Positions 4,316 through 41,944 are shown, counted from the first letter of the stretch. The stretch: DNA of 64,000 bases from Patescibacteria group bacterium (GCA_018971305.1 JAGXBC010000003.1:156325-220324); one strand, 5' to 3'. Notes: a model not told the origin generated them from the letters alone. Numbers and translations: made by a program.

Positions 4316-5845
4316 ATGACACTCCTAATCAAGAACGTTAAAATTTTGGGTTCAGCGGAAAAATTCTCCGGCGCTAAAGATGTTTTCGTGAGCGGAGATA
4401 AAATTTCCGCTATCGGCAATTTTTCCAATAAAACCGCCGATGATGTGTTTGAAGGCAAGGGTGCCTATCTAAGCCCGGGATTTATTGATGTGAACACCGA
4501 CTCCGATCATTATTTGAGTATTCTAAACTATCCCGAGCAGTCGGATTTTCTTGAACAAGGCGTTACCACTATCATTGGGGGCATGTGCGGATCATCTTTG
4601 GCCCCTCTTATTTACGGAAGCCTGGAATCGGTGCGAAAATGGGGAGACATTCGTAAAGTTAACGTCAATTGGCATACTATGGGGGAATTTCTTGATGTAC
4701 TGCAGCGTAAAAAATTGGCTGTTAATTTCGCTACTCTTATAGGCCACGCTACCATCCGACGAGCCATTGTCGGTGAGTCGCTCCGCGATCTTACAAAAAA
4801 CGAACTAAAAATTTTTGGAGAAACTTTAAAACGCGGCTTAAGCGACGGGGGATTCGGATTCTCTACCGGCCTCGGATATGTTCACGGCGCAAAAGTGCCT
4901 TACGCCGAAATAAAATTTTTGGCAGAAATAACAAAAAGCTTCAACGGTGTTTATGCCACTCATTTGCGTGGTGGCGAGTCCAATATATATGAAGCAACGG
5001 AAGAAGCGATAAAAATCGCGGAGGGAACCGGCGTGAAGACGCTTATCAGCCACTTCATGCCGTTCCAAGGCACGAAATCTTTTTATGAAAAATCCCTTAA
5101 AAGAATAGAAGGTTTGCCGAATAAATTAGATTTGCATTTTGATGTCTACCCTTACGACACGAGCCTTCTCGCGCTTTACACTTTTCTACCGCAATGGGCG
5201 CAAAACGGCGGCAATGAAAAAATGCTTAGGAATATAAACGATGAGTGGTTGGGGCCAAAAATAAAAAATGATTTTCCGGAGCTGGATGCGGAAAACTTTA
5301 TTGTGGCCCGAGCTCCGGGAAATAGCTCGCTTGTGGGCAAAACACTTGAAGATATTTCCGAAATATACGGCGTATCCGATCAAGCGTCAGCGCTTATGCA
5401 GTTAATGCTCACCACGAAACTTAAAGCAGTCGTGCTCTATAAAAATATTAATAACAAACTCATAAGGCGGGCAATTGGCAGCTCTAGATCTTTTATTGCT
5501 TCTAATTCTCCCAGCTTATCGGAAACGGAATCGGTAGGCACCTTGAAACCGGAACGGACGAGGTCAACATTCACGAAATTTATAGGGCTGGCTTTATCGG
5601 AAAAACTTCTATCTTTAGATAAGATTATTCAAAAGATAACCTCCGAACCGGCGGCCAAATTTAACTTGCGTAATAGAGGCGTAGTCAAAGAAGGTAATTT
5701 CGCCGACCTCGCTGTCTGGAGTTATTCACAGGGCGATGAGAAGGCCGAGCTAAAACTTACGGTTGTAAATGGCGATATTGCCTTTAAGAAAGGGGAGGCT
5801 GTCAAAAAATTTTCTGGTCAACCACTCAGACACATGTCCAGCTAA
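4316..5845 (+). CDS. amidohydrolase-family protein (D-aminoacylase-like fold)
   Basis: N-terminal pattern typical of N-acyl-D-amino-acid deacylases (…SPGFIDVNTDSDHY), but the canonical HxH metal motif is not evident. Confidence 0.55.
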   Translation: MTLLIKNVKILGSAEKFSGAKDVFVSGDKISAIGNFSNKTADDVFEGKGAYLSPGFIDVNTDSDHYLSILNYPEQSDFLEQGVTTIIGGMCGSSLAPLIYGSLESVRKWGDIRKVNVNWHTMGEFLDVLQRKKLAVNFATLIGHATIRRAIVGESLRDLTKNELKIFGETLKRGLSDGGFGFSTGLGYVHGAKVPYAEIKFLAEITKSFNGVYATHLRGGESNIYEATEEAIKIAEGTGVKTLISHFMPFQGTKSFYEKSLKRIEGLPNKLDLHFDVYPYDTSLLALYTFLPQWAQNGGNEKMLRNINDEWLGPKIKNDFPELDAENFIVARAPGNSSLVGKTLEDISEIYGVSDQASALMQLMLTTKLKAVVLYKNINNKLIRRAIGSSRSFIASNSPSLSETESVGTLKPERTRSTFTKFIGLALSEKLLSLDKIIQKITSEPAAKFNLRNRGVVKEGNFADLAVWSYSQGDEKAELKLTVVNGDIAFKKGEAVKKFSGQPLRHMSS

Positions 5846-5846
5846 A

Positions 5847-6953
5847 ATGTTCCGTTCAAAAAAAACAGGGCATCGCCCAGATTATTTCCTTTTTGCGCTG
5901 ATAATAATTTTTGTTGTTTTCGGGTTAGTAATGCTTGCGAGCGCTTCTTCTAATCTTGGCCAGACAAAATTCAACGACTCTTATTATTATCTTAAACACC
6001 AAATTTATTTCGGACTTTCGTTGGGGTTAATCGGTTTTTGTTTAGGATATTTTATATATTATCAGCGGCTTAAAAAAATCGCCCTTCCGCTGTTGCTTAT
6101 AAGTATTGCCGCTTTGGCTTTGGTGTTTACTAAATTAGGTCTGGAGGTAAATAACACCAATCGTTGGTTGCGTTTGGGTCCATTGAGTTTTCAGCCTGCA
6201 GAATTGGTAAAACTTACGTTTATACTTTACCTTGCTGCTTGGCTTAGCAATACAAAAATGAACCGCTCCAAAGATATCGGTGAGGGTTTTCTGCCATTCC
6301 TTTTGATGTCCGGCTTTATCGCAACCCTGCTTGTGTTGCAGCCGGCAACAAGCACGGTTGCGATCCTCTTGGTCACCGCCCTTATTGTATATCTTTTAAG
6401 CGGAGCTAAAATAAAATATGTAGTGGCAGTGATCCTTTTGGGTGCGATAGGGTTCGGGGTGGTAACCTACATCACTCCTTACCGCAGGGCAAGAATTTTG
6501 GGATTTTTGAATATGGGTCAGGATACGCAGGGCCAAAATTATCATATTAACCAAGCCCTGATTGCCATAGGCTCCGGAGGATTATGGGGTGTCGGTTACG
6601 GTCAGTCAGCTACAAAAACGAGCTATCTTCCGGCTCCGATAGACGATTCTATATTCGCGGTAATCGGAGAGGAGCTTGGTTTCGTGGGCGCCGGAAGTCT
6701 CGCCGCTGCATTCGGTATTTTCGCTTTCAGGATGTTTTGGCTGGCAAAAGGATTGCGCGATCAATTCGGAAAATTCCTGCTTATAGGGTTCGGGGCGATT
6801 ATTGCCCTGCAGGCGTTCGTGAATATGGGAGCGATTTCCGGTTTGATACCGCTTACGGGTGTGCCGCTGCCTTTCATTAGTTATGGAGGCACGGCGCTCG
6901 CAGTCTTTTTGACGATGGCCGGAATATCGCTTAATGTTTCCAAATACGCTTAA
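5847..6953 (+). CDS. ftsW: SEDS-family peptidoglycan glycosyltransferase FtsW/RodA
   Basis: About 10 TM helices; conserved SEDS C-terminal motifs (GGLWGVGYGQS, PLPFISYGG). Start ATG at 5847, right after the upstream stop. Confidence 0.85.
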   Translation: MFRSKKTGHRPDYFLFALIIIFVVFGLVMLASASSNLGQTKFNDSYYYLKHQIYFGLSLGLIGFCLGYFIYYQRLKKIALPLLLISIAALALVFTKLGLEVNNTNRWLRLGPLSFQPAELVKLTFILYLAAWLSNTKMNRSKDIGEGFLPFLLMSGFIATLLVLQPATSTVAILLVTALIVYLLSGAKIKYVVAVILLGAIGFGVVTYITPYRRARILGFLNMGQDTQGQNYHINQALIAIGSGGLWGVGYGQSATKTSYLPAPIDDSIFAVIGEELGFVGAGSLAAAFGIFAFRMFWLAKGLRDQFGKFLLIGFGAIIALQAFVNMGAISGLIPLTGVPLPFISYGGTALAVFLTMAGISLNVSKYA

Positions 6954-21580: not shown

Positions 21581-23026
21581 ATGGGCGAAGTAATTCTTAG
21601 ATTCAACAAGGTTTCTTTTGAGTATGACCGCAAGCCGATTCTTCTTGAGGCGGATTTTTCCGTGCGCGAGGGTTCAAAGATAACTCTTATGGGCCAAAAC
21701 GGAGCCGGGAAAACGACCATCTTCCAATTAATAATGAACACCATAAAACCGGAGGCCGGAGCGATCAACATCTCCGAGAAAGCAACAATAGCGACCGCTA
21801 GGCAGGTAATCCCCCGCGAACAGATGACGCTCACCGTAAAAGAATTCTTTGAGACCGCCTTCAAACAGAAAATATATGATATTGAACCGCGCATCAAAAA
21901 GATTCTGGACGTTGTGCATCTCTCTGTTCCTATTACGAGGACGCTGAAAACGCTTTCCGGCGGCCAACAGGCGCGCCTACTTCTCGCCCAGGCCTTAATA
22001 CAAAACCCCGACATACTTCTATTGGACGAACCGACCAACAATCTAGACAAGCAGGGCATCGCACACTTAAAACAATTCCTCATTGACTACCCCAAAACTT
22101 GCATCGTTATTTCCCACGACGCCGAGTTCCTTAACTCTTTTACGCACGGAGTGCTCTACCTGGATGTTTTTACCCACAAAGTTGAACAGTACACCGGCGA
22201 CTATTTTGACGTGGTAAAAGAAATCCAGGCCCGTCTTGAGCGCGAAAGAATGAAAAATGTCCGGTTAGAAAAAGATATAGAACATCGCAAAGAACAAGCC
22301 GGATTTTTCGCGCAAAAAGGCGGCCACATGCGCGACGTCGCCCGCAAAATGAAAGAGAAAATAGAGGAACTTGAGGGCGATGTTGTGGAAGTGCGCCGCG
22401 AGGATAAAACCATCAGAAATTTCACTATCCCCTGCCAGGAAGATATAAGCGGAAAAATTCTGGAATTAAAATCGGTTTCAATAATGAATTTACATAAACC
22501 CGTTGTAAAAAATGTTAACGTAATCCTCAAGAAAAAAGAGCGCCTGCTTCTCGCCGGTCCGAACGGCATAGGCAAGACCACGCTCTTGGAAAAACTCGCA
22601 ACTGGCCACGCGCAGGGTGAAAATATCACTCCCGGCGTGCGTATCGGCTACTATCGGCAGGATTTTTCCATCTTGAATTTTGAGGAAACTGTTTATAGGG
22701 CTCTCGCGGACGTCGTGCGCGACGGAACAGAACAGGAACTCCGCTCTTGCGCCGCCGGATTTCTTTTGGACTCGGATATTTTAAAAACAAAGATCGGTTC
22801 GCTTTCGGAGGGTCAGAAAGGGCTCGTTGCCTTCGCGCGGCTCGTACTCTTAAAACCCGGTCTTTTGATCTTGGACGAACCGACGAACCACATAAACTTC
22901 CGTCATATTCCGGTTATCGCGAAAGCATTGGACCATTACGAAGGCGCAATGATATTAGTGAGCCACGTTCCCGACTTCGTTAAACAGATAAAAATAAATT
23001 ACACGCTGGACTTGGAGACTTTATAA
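21581..23026 (+). CDS. ABC-F family ATPase (two tandem nucleotide-binding domains, no TM domain)
   Basis: Two Walker A motifs (GQNGAGKTT, GPNGIGKTT), two signature motifs (LSGGQQ, LSEGQK) and two Walker B motifs, joined by a charged linker. Confidence 0.8.
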   Translation: MGEVILRFNKVSFEYDRKPILLEADFSVREGSKITLMGQNGAGKTTIFQLIMNTIKPEAGAINISEKATIATARQVIPREQMTLTVKEFFETAFKQKIYDIEPRIKKILDVVHLSVPITRTLKTLSGGQQARLLLAQALIQNPDILLLDEPTNNLDKQGIAHLKQFLIDYPKTCIVISHDAEFLNSFTHGVLYLDVFTHKVEQYTGDYFDVVKEIQARLERERMKNVRLEKDIEHRKEQAGFFAQKGGHMRDVARKMKEKIEELEGDVVEVRREDKTIRNFTIPCQEDISGKILELKSVSIMNLHKPVVKNVNVILKKKERLLLAGPNGIGKTTLLEKLATGHAQGENITPGVRIGYYRQDFSILNFEETVYRALADVVRDGTEQELRSCAAGFLLDSDILKTKIGSLSEGQKGLVAFARLVLLKPGLLILDEPTNHINFRHIPVIAKALDHYEGAMILVSHVPDFVKQIKINYTLDLETL

Positions 23027-23132
23027 ATATAAGATAATAGAATATTGCCGTTTAAATCCTATCTATTGCTTGCGTTATATTTTGCCATTTGTTAGATTAT
23101 TTACAGGATAAATTTAACTATTGGAGGTAATT

Positions 23133-23345
23133 ATGGCTGCTAATGGTTGGAAAACAACACGACCGCCAAAAAGGAAGGTAAGGCCAGTAAAGTTGCGCTA
23201 TCGAAATATCCAAATGGGTGTTGGGGTTTCCAGGGGAGACTTTGTTTGGAGCGACAGAGAAAATGCATTCCTTGAGGTCATTGAAGGACCGGACGGAATT
23301 GGTCTATATAAAGATGATGGCTGGGAAATCTTGGGGTGGAGGTAG
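23133..23345 (+). CDS. hypothetical small protein
   Basis: GGAGG 7 nt upstream of the ATG at 23133; 70 aa; followed by a terminator. Confidence 0.5.
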   Translation: MAANGWKTTRPPKRKVRPVKLRYRNIQMGVGVSRGDFVWSDRENAFLEVIEGPDGIGLYKDDGWEILGWR

Positions 23346-23362
23346 TAATACTGAAACATCGT

Positions 23363-23393
23363 AGCGGAGAGATAACATCAATCCGCTTTTTTA
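23363..23393 (+). terminator. rho-independent terminator
   Basis: AGCGGA…TCCGCT hairpin followed by TTTTTTAT. Confidence 0.65.
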
Positions 23394-23446
23394 TTTAACG
23401 GTAGCTTGCCCCCGTTCGCGGTCTTCGGAGTTTTGGCTTGGTAACC

Positions 23447-24703
23447 TCAATATCTCTTCCCCTGCGGCGGCCTTCGTCCATAACCTTGGCGCGGAGGCCT
23501 GTTCCCAAAACTGCTTGAACGTCTGCCTTGGCGAGGACCGCCAAAACGGGAATGAAACGGTGTCCTCTCTAACGGACCCGTTGTACGCGCCGGAGGCATA
23601 TCCGCGGGCAGTGCCGAGAGCGGGAGCGTTGCCTTGATGAGGCGCTCAATGTCGCGTATATCCCCTTTTTGGTCCGGTGTCGCGAAAGAGATCGCGTGGC
23701 CCGCGCCGCCGATACGGCCTGTGCGGCCGATGCGGTGAACGTAATCTTCCGGGCTTGTCGGCAAATCGTAATTCAAGACAAGCTCAATGCCTTTTACGTC
23801 TATGCCGCGAGCGGCAATATCTGTCGCCACAAGCACGCGATATTTGCCGTTGCGGAATCCCTCTAGTGCCTCTTTACGCTGACTCAAAGACCTGTTGGAA
23901 TGAATCTCGGCAGCAGTGTGGCCGATATCTCTGATATGAGCAGCGATACGTTTTGCACCAAATTTCATACGTGTGAAGATTAAAACCGAACCGCGATATT
24001 CTCCCAGAACTTTTTCCAAAAGACGCGGCTTGTCCTGCTTCTGTACGAAGAAAAGCTCTTGAATGACTTTCTCGGCGGTCGTGCCGGACGGAGCGATTTC
24101 CACGCGCGTAGGCAGCTTCATGTACTGCTGGGCTATCGCAACTATATTCTGAGGCATGGTTGCGGAAAATAACATAGTTTGCCGTTCGTGAGGAACGACG
24201 GCGAGAATCCGTTTTAATTGCGGAGCGAAACCCATATCGAGCATTCGGTCGGCTTCATCAAGCACAAGCACGCCTACCGATTTCAAAGAAACCGTTTTTT
24301 GCTCCAGATGGTCTATTATTCTTCCCGGTGTTCCGATTACTATTTGCGGTCCTCTGCGTAGGGCCTGTATCTGGCGTCCGATAGGTTCGCCGCCAATAAG
24401 AACTGCGGCGCGAACGCCGAGAGATGCGCCTATGTCGTGGAACACGCCGCTTATCTGCAGAGCTAGTTCTCTGGTTGGAGCTACAACAAGACCCTGCTTG
24501 CCCCTAAGTACCGCCTGAAGCATCGGTACGCAAAAAGCAATGGTTTTACCAGTACCAGTTTGCGCAATACCGATAAGATCCTTCCCTTCAATCGCTCCAG
24601 GAATAGATTTTTCCTGAATAGGCGTGGGGGTTTTGAAACCCAGCTTATCAAGAACGGCTAGAATATTCGGCGCAATGCCGAGGTTGTAAAAATCAGAGTT
24701 CAC
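23447..24703 (-). CDS. DEAD-box ATP-dependent RNA helicase with RG-rich C-terminal tail
   Basis: Q-motif, AQTGTGKT, DEAD, SAT and HRIGRTGR motifs; Arg/Gly-rich tail. Confidence 0.9.
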   Translation of the reverse strand: MNSDFYNLGIAPNILAVLDKLGFKTPTPIQEKSIPGAIEGKDLIGIAQTGTGKTIAFCVPMLQAVLRGKQGLVVAPTRELALQISGVFHDIGASLGVRAAVLIGGEPIGRQIQALRRGPQIVIGTPGRIIDHLEQKTVSLKSVGVLVLDEADRMLDMGFAPQLKRILAVVPHERQTMLFSATMPQNIVAIAQQYMKLPTRVEIAPSGTTAEKVIQELFFVQKQDKPRLLEKVLGEYRGSVLIFTRMKFGAKRIAAHIRDIGHTAAEIHSNRSLSQRKEALEGFRNGKYRVLVATDIAARGIDVKGIELVLNYDLPTSPEDYVHRIGRTGRIGGAGHAISFATPDQKGDIRDIERLIKATLPLSALPADMPPARTTGPLERTPFHSRFGGPRQGRRSSSFGNRPPRQGYGRRPPQGKRY

Positions 24704-32928: not shown

Positions 32929-35568
32929 TTATTCATTGCTTCCATCTGTCGATGAATCTTCGCCGCTCAAGTCGCTGCTCCCGCCATCACCCTCTTCTTT
33001 TTCGGCCAATTCTTCCAGAGACTCTTCTTCAACGAAATCGTCGCGGTCTTCATCTGTGCCGTATAGAGCGGATTTTTCTTGGTCGTCTTCCAAAGATATC
33101 TTCTTTTTCTCGGGCAATATAGTTCCATTCGCATGCGTTACCGTGTCTATTTCTAATTCGTTAGCTCGGAATTCTGTATCGCCGATAGTATGGGGTAAGT
33201 TAGGTGACCGACTATATGTTTCAGGCATAATTTTTTCTTCGGAAAATTTTGTTTTACTATTTTCTTTTTCCGTATCCATATCTCTCCCGTCAACAGCATC
33301 ATAGTAGGACGTAGTCTTTGTCCGATTATTTTCTTCGGATAGGTTTTTTGGGGAGAACCCGTTAGATTCGTGCCTTATATAAGACCCACTATGTTCGGCA
33401 AAAGACCCTGTTTTATCATTTTGAATTGACGGGCGTGCTTCTTCAGTAGGTGGTCTATTACTACCTATGTTTTGTGGTGATATTCTAGCCCGAAAATCTT
33501 TTACGGACACTATTTTTTCTTCAGTTGATTTGGTTTCGTTCACATGGATAACCTTATTTATGGCTTCAACGGCAGGCGTTTTGTTTTCCCTATCATAGTC
33601 GTGAGACCGAGATTCTTTTTGCTCGCCATTGGTATGGGGAACAGAACTTTCCCTTGAATTTTTTTCTTCTTGATTCGACATTACGATGACCACGTTGCCG
33701 ATTTGCGGTTCTTTCTTCTCTATAACTAAAGATTGTTTGATGGCCTCGCGTAACCCAGCAATGTCTATATCCGGTTTTTTAGGAACCTTCGGCTTGAACT
33801 CCTGAGGGTGGGGTCTGCCGAGAACATTTGGATCTTCTCTTGCGGCCGGTACGCTTGGCGGATGTATTGACGTGCCTTTTTCTTTAAATGATTGGGTCGG
33901 CGATTGATCAGTATTTAGAGGGCGCTCCGGAATTCTTGGTACAGAGGGTACAGGCTGAGTAGGATGTGGTGTGGGCGACATCTGCGGTCTGTATTGCGGA
34001 GTACTGCTATTGTTATAGCCGTACTGTTGCTGCTGCTGGGGACGATAATCCCGTTGATCATAAGGCGATCGTCTGTCGCGATCACGATTATCAAAACCAT
34101 CACGCCTGCCAGGATTGTTTCCCATATCGCCCGTTCGCTCATACCTGGCAGAGTCGGACGGACGCCGATCCGGCCGTGGTCTGAAGGATTGGTTATTGCC
34201 ATCTTGCAATGTTTGCCTGAGGGGTCGTTCCCCTTGTCTATCAATTTTTCCGCCAACTATTGTTTCGCTCGCCGCCTGCCACTCCTCGGCAATTTTTTCA
34301 TCAACGATTTTTCTCGGCGTGCTATAACGGGTTCTGGAATTCTGAATAATAACGTCTTTGTGGCTGATAAGCGGGATTTTTTGCGGAGGCAATGTTTCCG
34401 CGGAAAACGGCCTTGAAGCCACGCCGTCTATCATCAGTTTTATATAGATGGTGGCTTTGGCGAGGTTAACGAGATCATTTTGTATAAATTCCGGCATAAA
34501 TTCTTTTTCCAGGAATTCGGCGTCGGCTCCTCCAGTGCGGAAACAGATAAGCGTACCGACGTTTCCAAAAACCGCGTCACGTACTTTTGTGTTTTGTTCG
34601 TTAACCAGCTGGCCTATATATTGATGGGCCAAGGTTAAACTTAACCGATATTTTCTTGCCTCGGACAAAATATTGGCGAACGACTCTGTGGCGAAATTTT
34701 GGAATTCATCCACGTACAGAAAAAAGTCGTTGCGTTGTTCTTCCGGCAAATCAACCCGGGACATCGCGGCGAGTTGTAAACGCGTTATGACCATAGCGCC
34801 CAAAAGCGCGGAATTATCTTCGCCGATCTTACCCTTGGATAGGTTAACGATGAATATTTTTTTATTGTCCATGATCTCGCGCATATTAAGCGTGGAATGC
34901 GCCTGACCAAGAATATTTCTGATCAAAGGATTGGAAACGAATTGTCCGACTTTATTCTGAATGGCAGCAACGGCTTCCGTTTCCAGCCTTTGGGTATATC
35001 TGGCAAATTCATTTACCCAAAAAGCTTTTATTACCGGGTCCTTTAAATTATCAACGATTTTTTTACGATAAGCAGGCTCGGAAAGCATTCTTATTACTCC
35101 TAAGAGCGTGGAGCTCGGATATTCCAAAAGCGCAAGAAGCGTGTTGTTCAGAATATATTCCATCCTCGCCGACCAAACGTCCGGCCAGATTTTTTTGAAA
35201 ACACCCATAATACCCGAAGCAACAAGGTGTCTGAATTCAGTCCCCACTTGTTCTATGGGATTGAAGGCGATGGGGTAATCCATATCAGCAGGATTGAAAT
35301 AAATCACGTCATCCAAGCGCTCTTCCGGCACGAATTCTACTATCTTCTCGGCCAATTCTCCGTGAGGATCAACAACGCCGACTCCGCGGCCGGCTCGAAT
35401 ATCGGCGACGATCATATTCTCCATCATTGTAGTTTTGCCAACGCCGGTTTTTCCGACAACATAAATATGCCGGCGGCGGTCGTCTGTTTTTATTCCAAAT
35501 CTTGTTTTTTGATTCCTGAAATTACAAAAACCGAGCGGTGTTAATTCGGTATTTTTTTTGTCGTTCAT
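32929..35568 (-). CDS. TraD/TraG/VirD4-like P-loop ATPase (coupling-protein-type) with ~440-aa low-complexity acidic/Pro/Arg-rich C-terminal tail
   Basis: Walker A GKTGVGKTT, Walker B LYVDEFQNF, and an LTLAHQYIGQL-type motif. The stop abuts the trmD start. Confidence 0.6.
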   Translation of the reverse strand: MNDKKNTELTPLGFCNFRNQKTRFGIKTDDRRRHIYVVGKTGVGKTTMMENMIVADIRAGRGVGVVDPHGELAEKIVEFVPEERLDDVIYFNPADMDYPIAFNPIEQVGTEFRHLVASGIMGVFKKIWPDVWSARMEYILNNTLLALLEYPSSTLLGVIRMLSEPAYRKKIVDNLKDPVIKAFWVNEFARYTQRLETEAVAAIQNKVGQFVSNPLIRNILGQAHSTLNMREIMDNKKIFIVNLSKGKIGEDNSALLGAMVITRLQLAAMSRVDLPEEQRNDFFLYVDEFQNFATESFANILSEARKYRLSLTLAHQYIGQLVNEQNTKVRDAVFGNVGTLICFRTGGADAEFLEKEFMPEFIQNDLVNLAKATIYIKLMIDGVASRPFSAETLPPQKIPLISHKDVIIQNSRTRYSTPRKIVDEKIAEEWQAASETIVGGKIDRQGERPLRQTLQDGNNQSFRPRPDRRPSDSARYERTGDMGNNPGRRDGFDNRDRDRRSPYDQRDYRPQQQQQYGYNNSSTPQYRPQMSPTPHPTQPVPSVPRIPERPLNTDQSPTQSFKEKGTSIHPPSVPAAREDPNVLGRPHPQEFKPKVPKKPDIDIAGLREAIKQSLVIEKKEPQIGNVVIVMSNQEEKNSRESSVPHTNGEQKESRSHDYDRENKTPAVEAINKVIHVNETKSTEEKIVSVKDFRARISPQNIGSNRPPTEEARPSIQNDKTGSFAEHSGSYIRHESNGFSPKNLSEENNRTKTTSYYDAVDGRDMDTEKENSKTKFSEEKIMPETYSRSPNLPHTIGDTEFRANELEIDTVTHANGTILPEKKKISLEDDQEKSALYGTDEDRDDFVEEESLEELAEKEEGDGGSSDLSGEDSSTDGSNE

Positions 35569-35579
35569 AAAAGTTAGAG

Positions 35580-36851
35580 TTATTCCATGGTCGGCAACGC
35601 CGGGGGCGGTCCGCCTTTACGCGATTCAACCTTTTCCAATTGCGTGGATCCAACTCCCATTATCGGGAAGTGGTAAATGGTAGCTAACTCCTCAATATTA
35701 AGAATAGGTTTGTGGTGATTAAAAACCTGATCACGATATTTTTCGAAAATCACCCTTTTGCGCCAATTAAGCCGTAATTTAACAAACATCCCATGTACGG
35801 CGCGGCACATTGTATTTTTGTCCGGTTTCAGAAGATTAAGATTCTGCGTATTGAATTGCCGGAAAAATCCGGAGATAGAGGCCACGTTGTCACGGCTGAA
35901 TGAATCGCGTTTATCAATGTATAAAAATCTAATCGTTGTCTCAAAGCCAAGTTTCGCAATTTTTTTCTCAATACCTTCAACGACTTCGCGCTGCCCGGGG
36001 GTGAGAAGCAGCATTCTGAAGTTAATTTCATCTCTTTTTTTCTCGGCTTCGGTTGCGGGATGCTCAAAGGGTGAGCGCAAAACTTCTCCGAGGGTTACTC
36101 CTAAGCCCAAAAACCCCGATTTTTTCTTCTTTTGTTCTTCCAGGCCTGTCATTTTTCTTACAAACGCTTCACCAGCTAATCGCCAGTCGTCCCCGGTGGG
36201 CCGAACCATCATTTGTATCCAAATCTGTTCGTCCTCCTTAAGCTTGGATGTGGCTTCCGTTATGGCGGAAATAGTATCAATGCGTCTTTCTTCAACCGCC
36301 TCTTCAAACATAGGATAAGTTCTTATAGGGAAACAATCCGGATTGCGCAAAATCTGTTCCTCGCCGTAAACCTCAATGCTTTTAGTCGGCATGACATGCG
36401 GCATTTGCTTTACGTAATCTTCAACTTCCTTTATTTCCGCTTCGGGATATTGGGCGTAGATTGCCGATTCCATCAAGTTGCGGAATTGTTTTGGCAGGCG
36501 CAGATAAAAATGAGTTTCTCCCGCCGAACCAACTATTTCAAATGACATCCAATATTCAACCTTCCCCTCCCAATATTTCTCCAAGAATCTCAGACCGTAA
36601 GAATAGGGTACGTGCGCTGCGGCGAATATCTGCTCCATGGCCTTCGGAGTTTTCAGGACGTTCTTTGGAACCTTTATTTCCAAAAGCTGCCACCTAATGG
36701 CAACGATAAATTTATATTGGATATAAAGCATCCAAAAATCCCAGAACAAAAAGAAAGCCATCAATGGCAGGGCAAACCACCAAACTTGGCTCCATACGTC
36801 TTTAACGCTTTGAATTAATCCGCTGGTTAATCCGGAAATTACCTGAGGCAT
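35580..36851 (-). CDS. hypothetical membrane-anchored protein (one N-terminal TM helix), upstream partner of the TraD-like ATPase
   Basis: Hydrophobic segment near residues 20-50; 11-nt gap to the ATPase gene. Confidence 0.5.
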   Translation of the reverse strand: MPQVISGLTSGLIQSVKDVWSQVWWFALPLMAFFLFWDFWMLYIQYKFIVAIRWQLLEIKVPKNVLKTPKAMEQIFAAAHVPYSYGLRFLEKYWEGKVEYWMSFEIVGSAGETHFYLRLPKQFRNLMESAIYAQYPEAEIKEVEDYVKQMPHVMPTKSIEVYGEEQILRNPDCFPIRTYPMFEEAVEERRIDTISAITEATSKLKEDEQIWIQMMVRPTGDDWRLAGEAFVRKMTGLEEQKKKKSGFLGLGVTLGEVLRSPFEHPATEAEKKRDEINFRMLLLTPGQREVVEGIEKKIAKLGFETTIRFLYIDKRDSFSRDNVASISGFFRQFNTQNLNLLKPDKNTMCRAVHGMFVKLRLNWRKRVIFEKYRDQVFNHHKPILNIEELATIYHFPIMGVGSTQLEKVESRKGGPPPALPTME

Positions 36852-40279: not shown

Positions 40280-40576
40280 ATGGCTGAAAACCCCTACATC
40301 TGGTACGAGGACCTCCTGTTTCTCGCGGCTAAAATAGAAAAACTGATGCTTATAATAATGGCCGGCAATTCTAATTCGGGAACGCGGGCGGTATATCGTG
40401 AATATAAGAAGCAACTGAAATTGCATTGGATATGCGCAAGCAATGAAGAATTAATGGCCGCAATAGAAAGAGGCCATAAAGATTTTCCCGCCGACCGGGA
40501 ATTTTATAAACTGGAGAATCTTCAGCGCGCAAGGGCCTACCATCAACAACATTTGCCGAAATCTATGATTCAATAA
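40280..40576 (+). CDS. hypothetical protein
   Basis: GGAGG 6 nt upstream of the ATG at 40280; 98 aa. Confidence 0.45.
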   Translation: MAENPYIWYEDLLFLAAKIEKLMLIIMAGNSNSGTRAVYREYKKQLKLHWICASNEELMAAIERGHKDFPADREFYKLENLQRARAYHQQHLPKSMIQ

Positions 40577-40683
40577 ACAACCCACCAGAAAATGGTGGGG
40601 CTTTTTATATTTTTAGGGAATCAATGTGCGAGGGCTTGCCACGCCTCTGACGGGATTGGACGACCTGCTCGCCAGCCGGCAAG

Positions 40684-40710
40684 TGTTCGAACGGTTTTGT
40701 TGTGTAATAT
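40684..40710. repeat. 27-nt direct repeat copy A (TGTTCGAACGGTTTTGTTGTGTAATAT)
   Basis: 25/27 identical to the copy at 41152-41178. Confidence 0.7.
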
Positions 40711-40726
40711 ATAAAAACGGCGCCCG

Positions 40727-41065
40727 TTATAGGTGCGCCGCGTATCTTTTAATATCTTCTGATAAATAGACAACTTCTTGAAGACTTATTGATTCTGCCT
40801 CCTTGCCTGTATTTTTTCCAAGTATTAAATCATCAATTGCGCAAAGAAATGCTGGTTTACTCTCAGCCGAGACGCATTTCTCGTAAATATGCAATAGACC
40901 ATCGGACACGGATTCGGAGTTGACGATTATTGTATATACAGCAGTCGACGTCCCTCTTCCACGAGAAATACAAAACGCTTGAACCACGGTCCATATCCAT
41001 TCGGCGAAACCATTACGATCGAGATTGTTTAATTCTTGCGCAGCTTTCTTATCGGCCCAAGACAA
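40727..41065 (-). CDS. hypothetical protein flanked by the 27-nt repeats
   Basis: TTG start preceded by an AAGGAG ribosome-binding site; 112 aa. Confidence 0.45.
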   Translation of the reverse strand: MSWADKKAAQELNNLDRNGFAEWIWTVVQAFCISRGRGTSTAVYTIIVNSESVSDGLLHIYEKCVSAESKPAFLCAIDDLILGKNTGKEAESISLQEVVYLSEDIKRYAAHL

Positions 41066-41103
41066 AGTAATCTCCTTTTATACCAGATTATTCTTTCGAA
41101 ATC

Positions 41104-41118
41104 ATATATTACACACAA
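41104..41118. repeat. inverted partial copy (ATATATTACACACAA) of the repeat 3' half
   Basis: Reverse complement matches TTGTGTGTAATATAT; forms an inverted repeat with copy B across a 33-nt spacer. Confidence 0.55.
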
Positions 41119-41151
41119 TCACAGTGTCAACTTGTGTGCAGGAGAGGACGA

Positions 41152-41178
41152 TGTTCGAACGATTTTGTGGTGTAATAT
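41152..41178. repeat. 27-nt direct repeat copy B (TGTTCGAACGATTTTGTGGTGTAATAT)
   Basis: 25/27 identical to copy A. Confidence 0.7.
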
Positions 41179-41185
41179 GGAACAA

Positions 41186-41833
41186 TCAAGCATCCACAAA
41201 TAGGTATTTACCCTCTGTAATAACTTTGATTTTGTCGTTTATCACCTCTAATGCAGAATTATCATCAAGCGCATACATCGGCCCCCTCAGCTTTTTAGCA
41301 AGCCTGGTCAGGTATTTAGTTCTTGCTTTCGGAAAATGTGGGGAGCTGAAGTGGGGTCGGAAGTGGAGACTAACCAATCTAAGGGCTTTTTCTCTTCTGG
41401 GCTCTTCGCCATAATACATCTTGAGCAACGATAAATCAGGACCCGCAACGATGCTCCCCGCACTGATACCAACATAGACCCTCATTTTCAAGAGCCTAGG
41501 CAATGCTTTATCGATTCCTGATTTTCTGATCCAATGCAGTAGGTAAGATGTGTCTCCGCCCCCAAAGAGAATGACATCTGCTTCTTCTAAACGAGGACGC
41601 CAGATTCTTGATTGCGGTGTGGCATCAATATTTAAGATATTTATCTTTCCGAAACCGAGCTTGGCGCAATTATTAAGATCATTAATTAGCCATTTCTTAT
41701 CTCGTGAAGAAATATTTGCGGCCGTAGGAATAAAAACAAGCTTCGCTTTAGAAAATGGTTTTCTCAATAATTTCCTCAGCGACTTCGCTATGGTCTTATT
41801 ACTGATTCCGTTCGAAGTCAAAAGCAATCTCAT
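41186..41833 (-). CDS. pepE: peptidase E-like S51 family dipeptidase
   Basis: LLTSNG, FGGGDT and GISAGS motifs. Confidence 0.75.
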   Translation of the reverse strand: MRLLLTSNGISNKTIAKSLRKLLRKPFSKAKLVFIPTAANISSRDKKWLINDLNNCAKLGFGKINILNIDATPQSRIWRPRLEEADVILFGGGDTSYLLHWIRKSGIDKALPRLLKMRVYVGISAGSIVAGPDLSLLKMYYGEEPRREKALRLVSLHFRPHFSSPHFPKARTKYLTRLAKKLRGPMYALDDNSALEVINDKIKVITEGKYLFVDA

Positions 41834-41856
41834 AAGTTAAGTTTAACAAAAAACCT

Positions 41857-41944
41857 TGGTGCGCAGGGCAGGATTCGAACCTGCGTAGCCCAAAAGGGCG
41901 ACAGATTTACAGTCTGTTGCGATTGGCCGCTCCGCCACCTGCGC
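41857..41944 (-). tRNA. tRNA-Tyr (anticodon GTA), type II with long variable arm, CCA encoded
   Basis: Reverse complement GCGCAGGTGGCGGAGCGGCCAA…CAGACTGTAAATCTG…GGTTCGAATCCTGCCCTGCGCACCA. A 7-bp acceptor stem can be drawn by hand; the anticodon loop is CTGTAAA. Confidence 0.9.

Follow-up and report, generated by a model that had tools for sequence, protein, structure and literature searches.

A 64,000-nucleotide (nt) stretch of the genome of a Patescibacteria group bacterium (GCA_018971305.1, JAGXBC010000003.1:156325-220324; hereafter the window, with positions counted from its first letter) carries a small gene bracketed by two direct repeats, and the nature of these repeats is the subject of this analysis. 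The repeats are 27-mers at 40684-40710 (copy A) and 41152-41178 (copy B; plus-strand coordinates) and are identical at 25/27 positions. Between them lies an open reading frame (ORF) for a protein of 112 amino acids (aa) on the minus strand (40727-41065) with an AAGGAG-N7-TTG start, and an intact tRNA-Tyr (GTA) gene was found at 41857-41944 on the same strand (ARAGORN; Rfam 60.4 bits). The repeat pair, the ORF and the tRNA gene had been listed in an initial annotation of this DNA and were recovered as described there. The interval between the tRNA gene and the repeats is occupied by a gene for a 215-aa Peptidase_S51 protein (dipeptidase E-like; 41186-41833, minus strand; Pfam PF03575, E = 7.2e-33). 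On the coding strand, a 27-mer follows shortly after the stop codon of either gene, at a distance of 7 nt for the S51 gene and 16 nt for the 112-aa gene. A scan allowing up to three mismatches gave the two known copies as the sole matches in the 64 kb, where shuffles expect 0, and a looser scan of the window revealed no third copy above background. Beyond the 27-mers the similarity of the flanks is not significant (326 of 1000 shuffles scored as well on the right and 378 of 1000 on the left).

The limits of the repeated unit had to be redrawn. The 27-mer, which spans the extension and positions 1-16 of the core, is no more than the left arm of a putative functional unit of ~34-46 nt, which reads in full on the minus strand as (ATATTACACCA)CAAAATCGTTCGAACATCGTCC-AGNCCNGYGCAC. 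A sequence model of this site built from 84 copies, none of them from the window (model R1), was run on the window without filters and finds exactly two sites there, B and A. Site B (41131-41177, minus strand; 43.1 bits, E = 1.3e-12) is a canonical full site composed of the left extension ATATTACACCA, the core CAAAATCGTTCGAACATCGTCC and the right arm TCTCCTGCACAC. Site A (40650-40709, minus strand; 18.9 bits, E = 5.6e-5) is a split copy, in which a 20-nt insert (CTTGCCGGCTGGCGAGCAGG, 40664-40683) separates the left arm (40684-40709) from the right arm (TCGTCCAATCCCGT, 40650-40663). The GC-rich stretch CTTGCC...GGCAAG that had been noted as a palindrome before copy A is present, and consists mostly of the right arm and insert of site A. 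The order on the minus strand is thus tRNA-Tyr, the S51 unit, site B, the cassette with the 112-aa gene, split site A and a flank towards secD/secF.

The 112-aa gene, the cargo of the unit between the two sites, may bring its own expression signals. A promoter-like sequence for this gene, TTGACA-18-TATGAT (41101-41130, minus strand; 11/12 positions in a consensus scan), lies directly 3' of site B, and a terminator-like hairpin CGGCGC...GCGCCG with a T-run (40706-40740, minus strand; fold and terminator scan) stands at the 3' end of the gene, with the T-run extending into the left extension of site A. The spacer and -10 region of the promoter-like site contain an inverted partial copy of the left-arm extension (TTGTGTGTAATATAT, 41104-41118, minus strand), located 33 nt from copy B. 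This inverted copy is real and is complementary to copy A at 12/12 positions (40701-40712). It has no family-wide counterpart around other copies of the site.

A conserved site in arrays of single-gene units

Low-stringency blastn against the syntenic interval of a relative (L006, described below) matched 20/22 positions of CAAAATCGTTCGAACATCGTCC, the sequence around copy B on the minus strand. When metagenome contigs were scanned with the pattern CAAAATNGTTCGAANATCGTCC, 54 stretches matched, whereas ~2 are expected by chance according to our own estimate, and their flanks were unrelated on both sides. Twelve positions outside the search pattern were conserved as well (A-[GC]-[GT]-C-C-N-G-[TC]-G-C-[AG]-C). 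The left arm is nearly invariant (…CAAAATCGTTCGAACATCG), the right arm follows TCC-N3-CC-N-G-Y-GCAC, and a left extension ATATTAC(A/G)CCA is common to one sub-family and both window copies. Outside the tRNA-like part (see below), 20/22 core positions are identical across contigs that range from 38 to 53% GC. Dyad symmetry is confined to the palindromic GTTCGAAC, with none beyond 8 bp. The exact 27-mer was absent from JGI metagenomes, IMG/VR and, with up to six mismatches allowed, 88 fetched loci, and the site gave only chance-level matches in IMG/VR, phage records and plasmid records. Looking for further copies thus had a divided outcome: the 27-mer as such is unique, whereas the 22-nt core recurs widely at cassette boundaries, and the pair is no private duplication of this genome. 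The wide recurrence of the core supports the idea of a small integrated cassette rather than refuting it. Of the three readings offered in the initial annotation, an att-like duplication from such a cassette is therefore the one we favour over a miniature inverted-repeat transposable element (MITE) and a cis-regulatory RNA or operator.

With up to five mismatches allowed in the core, ~100 site copies were located in 44 non-redundant metagenome contigs, always on one strand within each array. Contig L132 holds six copies, L109 and L138 hold five each, and L101, L122, L141 and L103 four each. The intervals between neighbouring sites measure 300-700 nt in 37 of 51 cases (range of spacing 200-2100 nt), and 48 of the 51 contain an ORF of at least 40 aa, which usually covers 60-99% of the interval. 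Of these ORFs, 28 have the orientation of the site and 20 the opposite one, and the distance from the site to the next start codon varies from 2 to 122 nt. All-against-all BLAST showed the intervals to be mutually unrelated, save for a NUDIX cassette that recurs in two arrays. Pfam has no match for most cassette products; among the others are NUDIX, GrpB, HIT, HNH, HD and S51 proteins. The site is intergenic in nearly all loci and often lies between a terminator hairpin and a TTGAC box; such boxes occur just after the site or near the cassette ends in other copies too. A reading of the arrays as clustered regularly interspaced short palindromic repeats (CRISPR) was rejected, given this spacing and the ORFs in the intervals. 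A MITE fares no better: MITEs and repeats derived from insertion sequences (IS) have terminal inverted repeats, target-site duplications and dispersed internal copies, whereas the copies found here are direct, lack terminal inverted repeats and enclose unrelated intervals.

Two kinds of comparison show where homology between arrays stops. Firstly, the NUDIX cassette is 92% identical between L109 and L131, and this homology is confined to the stretch between the bounding sites, outside of which the contigs are unrelated. Secondly, the contig pairs L122/L139 and L141/L143 have a common left flank up to the site and diverge beyond it. To judge from the sequences, these are the marks of a unit exchanged at the sites.

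The family also bears on the proposal that the repeats act at the level of RNA or as operators, so that the repeats and the inverted copy would form a hairpin in the 5' untranslated region, a long-range RNA pairing, or operators controlling the 112-aa gene. The overlap of the inverted 12-15-nt copy with the promoter-like site would suit such control, as would its closeness to the site, which is unlikely by chance (by our own uniform-composition estimate, a 15-mer with up to two mismatches is expected ~0.1 times in the window; at up to three mismatches the expectation is 1.66). However, the minimum-energy fold does not contain the 13-14-bp stem that had been predicted for the 5' untranslated region, and this fold is not more stable than those of shuffles (z = -0.64). 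Moreover, a transcript from TTGACA-18-TATGAT would exclude the stem, since the promoter-like site overlaps the stem's 3' arm. Among 86 copies of the site, stems that pair the left and right flanks are no commoner than in shuffles, a hairpin enclosing the site is not family-wide, and Rfam searches (E up to 1-5) matched only tRNA and none of the site. The repeat adjoins unrelated genes in other genomes, where cassette ORFs have both orientations relative to it, and the 112-aa protein is acidic by residue count and matches no DNA-binding domain. We consider control through RNA or operators very unlikely.

Resemblance to tRNA 3' ends and the centre of the site

Sites occur 300-700 nt downstream of tRNA genes (2.3 kb in L132) and on the strand of the tRNA. 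The neighbour is tRNA-Tyr at five loci (the window, L006, L132, L134 and L138), tRNA-Gln at four (L098, L114, L134 and L147) and tRNA-Leu at one (L146), and no tRNA was seen in about half of the loci with enough upstream sequence. The tRNA-Tyr 3' end, GGTTCGAA-TCCTGCCCTGCGCAC, and the site, CGTTCGAA-CATCG-TCCAGGCCTGTGCAC, have the T-loop heptamer GTTCGAA in common and agree at 10-13 of 15 positions in the right arm. The tRNA-Tyr gene of the window ends in GGTTCGAATCCTGCCCTGCGCAC, which resembles the site in the T-loop heptamer and the right arm. The earlier statement that the repeat is unlike a tRNA 3' end consequently fails once the whole site is taken into account. Three of the four sites beside tRNA-Gln end in ...GCCAGC as tRNA-Gln itself does (the L098 site ends in ...GCCATT), and the L146 site agrees with the adjoining tRNA-Leu at 14/15 positions. 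When right arms are classed as Tyr/Leu-type or Gln-type, the class agrees with the adjoining tRNA in 10/11 cases. Model R1 gives weak matches (E = 0.26-3.9) on 4/5 tRNA-Tyr ends, including that of the window (41856-41877), and on 0/9 other tRNAs. We propose that the tRNA-Tyr gene of the window is the anchor of the array, and the S51 gene probably represents 'cassette 0', the first slot between tRNA-Tyr and site B.

Resemblance to a tRNA end could also be inherited from larger elements. The sites would then be scars of integrase-bearing elements (phage-like, tycheposon-like or similar to integrative and conjugative elements) that had repeatedly inserted in tRNA genes, each leaving behind part of the tRNA as a repeat, and had decayed to one or a few genes; the repeats would now be functionless. 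Such a history would account for a site downstream of the tRNA on the same strand, for its tRNA-like right arm and for the present lack of a recombinase, and Prochlorococcus is known to have islands seeded at tRNA genes in which degenerate elements accumulate (10.1101/2020.12.28.424599). Decay should nevertheless have affected the repeats, yet the non-tRNA-like core has kept 20/22 of its positions. The units are also uniformly compact and single-gene instead of ragged, no intact integrase-bearing element stands beside any of the ~100 sites, and one cassette recurs bounded exactly by sites. It is therefore unlikely that the sites are scars of this kind.

GC skew was followed around the site in the nine cases with enough flank (eight loci and the window). 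Taken in the orientation of the site, it is positive or zero on both sides; the site thus lies on the G-rich strand, without a skew switch at the site. This position is expected if the site follows the orientation of the tRNA. It also concerns the idea that the site is a Xer/dif-type site for dimer resolution, which cassettes exploit in the manner of integrative mobile elements exploiting Xer (IMEX). Xer/dif with IMEX or pdif modules resembles the present case in having a short conserved chromosomal site that flanks small recombinase-less modules, with the enzyme supplied in trans (here proposed). The length of ~28-34 bp, the strong conservation across species and the direct repeats around small integrase-less units would all fit. 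The window further contains a terminus-like switch at ~22000-24000, at a distance of 18 kb from the site: nearly all ORFs of 150 aa or more are on the plus strand up to ~23.0 kb and nearly all are on the minus strand from 23.4 kb, and GC skew flips from positive to negative at the same place (~23 kb). However, dif is a 28-31-bp site with partly inverted arms around a 6-8-bp spacer and is present once per chromosome at the terminus, whereas the site described here has no dyad and no inverted 11-bp arms around such a spacer, occurs in up to six direct copies per array, is linked to tRNA genes and lies off the skew switch. The Xer/dif reading is already largely refuted and, in our estimate, extremely unlikely.

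The split copies give an indication of where the site may be cut and joined. Model R1 placed the 20-nt insert of site A between GAACA and TCGTCC. In L132, L131 and L145 the array is closed at its distal end by split copies homologous to site A, with inserts of 20-43 nt (consensus CCTTCGGCGAGCTCGGAACAAG), and a further copy in L131 has an insert of 8 nt at almost the same position. No fold is conserved among the split copies. Since extra bases (inserts of 8, 20 and 43 nt) occur only around ACAT|CGTCC, this point is the likely junction.

We consider it probable that the site serves for att-type recombination at the borders of mobile single-gene cassettes, and that the 112-aa gene is one such cassette. 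The 27-mer pair would then represent a minimal two-copy array of an att-type site of ~34-46 bp, with a right arm that imitates a tRNA gene in its T-stem and the 3' strand of its acceptor. Site-specific recombination in the middle of the site (around ACAT|CGTCC) would account for the gain, loss and exchange of units, and the recombinase would be encoded elsewhere in the genome and act in trans. Each cassette would have the right arm at one end and the left arm at the other, so that its circular form would carry one full site, and arrays would be built by integration beside a tRNA gene or into an existing site. We infer that recombination at the site, and not another process, moves the cassettes, and also where the crossover may fall.

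A further copy of the site was found in a different setting. Locus L148 (contig Ga0326728_10000750, 1690-3940) contains a true CRISPR array with a 37-nt repeat (GTTGAAGAAGCATCCCCGACGAAGAGGGGACTGAAAC), and one of its spacers (1862-1897, 36 nt) equals the site from position 2 to 38. The host of this array appears to be GC-rich and is not obviously a Patescibacterium; the ORFs upstream of the array encode a 283-aa protein without Pfam match and a DUF6602 protein. Because the spacer equals the whole site, DNA with the site was apparently sampled as foreign, which hints at travel of such DNA between cells.

The position of the site with respect to genes might instead imply that it binds a nucleoid or insulator protein or a regulator. 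Exchange would in that case proceed only by homologous recombination between the 34-46-bp repeats after DNA uptake. The frequent location between a terminator hairpin and a TTGAC box, the intergenic position in nearly all loci and the lack of a linked recombinase are in line with this, and RecA-type exchange needs a minimal length close to these 34-46 bp. Against a protein-binding role, the orientation of the site is constant within each array while that of the genes is mixed, the distance to the start codon is variable, and the cassette genes have no common function. Furthermore, the right arm tracks the adjoining tRNA, the inserts cluster at one central point, and CRISPR spacers would not be expected to target the site of a regulator. 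We regard a protein-binding site exchanged by homologous recombination as improbable.

Several observations weigh against an att-type site that is recombined in trans. A Pfam summary of 142 flanking ORFs contained no linked recombinase. Motif scans for tyrosine and serine recombinases, which did detect Xer genes in control loci, and a Xer-type hidden Markov model were likewise negative over the 64-kb window and ~0.33 Mb of site-bearing loci. The site itself lacks the inverted-arm symmetry that is usual for tyrosine-recombinase cores. Relative to the tRNA end it has five extra nt (CATCG), and the neighbouring tRNAs are intact; because of these five nt, a crossover in the T-loop would not rebuild a working tRNA. 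The correspondence with the adjoining tRNA has an exception in L120, where the site beside tRNA-Lys does not match that tRNA. Neither an empty site nor a circular junction was seen for the 112-aa cassette, for which only identical contigs of the same strain were available for comparison; variation in cassette content is supported indirectly by the NUDIX cassette found in two arrays and by the different genes that L006 has in the syntenic interval. Lastly, the same arrays recur unchanged in different samples (e.g., L101/L119 and L097/L107), so turnover is not fast.

Neighbouring genes, relatives and side observations

The best SecD relatives are up to 78% identical. The genome L006 (OY970175.1, a complete 0.9-Mb metagenome-assembled genome) has a SecD with 76% identity and has kept the order tsf, 117-aa gene, tRNA-Tyr ... 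secD. Its interval between tRNA-Tyr and secD contains a 105-aa gene and an IS and not the S51, 112-aa and 98-aa genes, from which it follows that this interval is variable in gene content. The site is present in the same interval as a single copy. The IS is IS481-like (4955-5953, encoding a 311-aa rve transposase, with 20-bp terminal inverted repeats GCACACACATATGGCGGACT) and is inserted ~25 nt 3' of the site; its insertion there may be due to chance, or the IS may target the site. In the window, the 98-aa gene (40280-40599, plus strand; ORF call) is convergent with the cassette and belongs to the variable flank between the array and secD. A bidirectional terminator (40581-40599; terminator scan) lies beside it.

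Close homologues of the 112-aa and 98-aa proteins were not found (the word-indexed search returned the 112-aa protein itself only), and all contigs in the searched collections that carry these two genes are identical to the window. Remote homologues of the 112-aa protein are P0126 and P0128 (pairwise BLASTP E = 9e-13), while matches to giant Big_9/cadherin repeat proteins were judged compositional. Pfam and PADLOC gave no match for the protein. It is predicted to be all-helical, with an AlphaFold2 model of low confidence (predicted local distance difference test, pLDDT, 52.9). By sequence comparison the 112-aa protein belongs to a real but rare family with no function assigned. P0126 (344 aa) is encoded in the middle of a three-gene operon (325, 344 and 750 aa; L090 1222-9230, GCA_016931775.1) that has no Pfam matches and adjoins HNH_2, DruA and DUF87 genes, a neighbourhood that is defence-island-like.

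Homologues of the S51 protein at ~70% identity occur in unrelated contexts. In other Patescibacteria (L085-L088) they lie among closely packed small accessory genes (GrpB, PNPOx, cupin, DinB, DUF1801 and glyoxalase). These gene groups resemble the cassette cargo and are without the site.

Both repeats open ORFs on the plus strand (41151-41414, beginning MFERFCGVIW, and 40683-40769, beginning VFERFCCVIY), and at copy B an AGGAG stands 6 nt before the ATG. A reading of the repeats as small ORFs was rejected: the family does not conserve the position of the ATG (core position 15 is C in 35 copies, A in 8, G in 6 and T in 3), and the ORFs were judged to be a by-product of the DNA repeat. The 27-mer was also considered as a -35/-10 promoter, for which its spacing is unsuitable, and any transcripts that it drove would be antisense.

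In independent assemblies of the same strain from Logan, the sequence breaks off inside the T-arm of tRNA-Tyr (41888-41891, two samples) and 42 nt beyond site B (41220, one sample). Such breaks at the borders of the array could reflect shared k-mers or population variation. Finally, ~5 kb from the array the window encodes a VirD4/TraG-like coupling protein (879 aa; T4SS-DNA_transf, TrwB_AAD_bind) together with an adjoining DUF8128 gene (32929-36851, minus strand).

Comparison with integrons and tRNA-seeded islands

The arrays have several features in common with integrons, with clusters of attC sites lacking integron integrases (CALINs) and with sedentary chromosomal integrons. In all of these, conserved sites are arrayed on the same strand and delimit compact cassettes with mostly one ORF, and the site is homogeneous within a lineage. 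As in integrons, the cargo is mostly without assigned function, includes small enzymes of the NUDIX, GrpB and HIT type, and the same cassette can be found in different arrays. The site itself is different. Integron attC sites are imperfect palindromes of 57-141 bp (R''-L''...L'-R') with a GTTRRRY core, whereas the site described here measures 34-46 nt and has neither such a palindrome nor a GTTRRRY/RYYYAAC pair. The integron platform (IntI, attI and the cassette promoter Pc) was not found here. Since CALINs without integrase exist, a missing integrase is by itself compatible with kinship to integrons. Integron cassettes are largely promoterless, co-oriented and expressed from Pc; in contrast, 20 of the 48 cassette ORFs found here (~40%) are antisense to the site, and the cassette of the window has its own promoter-like and terminator-like sequences. 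A further difference from integrons is the link to tRNA genes, at which the arrays begin and whose 3' end the site imitates.

Tandem accretion of integrase-less elements flanked by att sites is known from cis-mobilizable elements. The tRNA-seeded islands of Prochlorococcus (tycheposon islands; 10.1101/2020.12.28.424599) resemble the present arrays in being located downstream of an intact tRNA gene, and in having direct repeats similar to the tRNA 3' end, variable content and integrase-less units. The present repeat, however, appears to be more than a plain partial copy of the tRNA, since it has a conserved non-tRNA left arm and five extra nt. The units here are single genes of 0.3-0.9 kb instead of multi-kb elements with integration and replication modules, and there is no integrase-bearing member among ~50 loci. 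The arrays work like those of integrons or like tRNA-seeded islands, but they have neither the IntI, attI and attC architecture of the former nor an element with its own integrase.

The literature on integrons, attC or Xer in combination with Patescibacteria or the candidate phyla radiation (CPR) contained no description of such arrays. We tentatively suggest, at somewhat less than even chances, that they constitute a distinct and undescribed cassette system, lineage-wide in Patescibacteria (CPR), that is analogous to integrons. Self-expressed single-gene cassettes would be stored in tandem downstream of tRNA genes, bounded by a site that mimics the tRNA end and recombined by an enzyme acting in trans, and they would move between lineages, with the site recorded as a CRISPR spacer in at least one other organism. 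CPR bacteria have tiny genomes with few recognised mobile elements, and to our knowledge it is largely unclear how they gain and shuffle accessory genes. If the proposal is true, a boundary site that can be searched for would give a direct handle on the flexible gene pool of the CPR. It would also single out candidates for adaptive or defence genes, which are mostly unannotated, and raise the testable question of what enzyme, acting in trans, recognises a sequence that imitates the end of a tRNA. The arrays would then represent a third layout for the storage of mobile genes in bacteria, next to integrons and tRNA-seeded islands.

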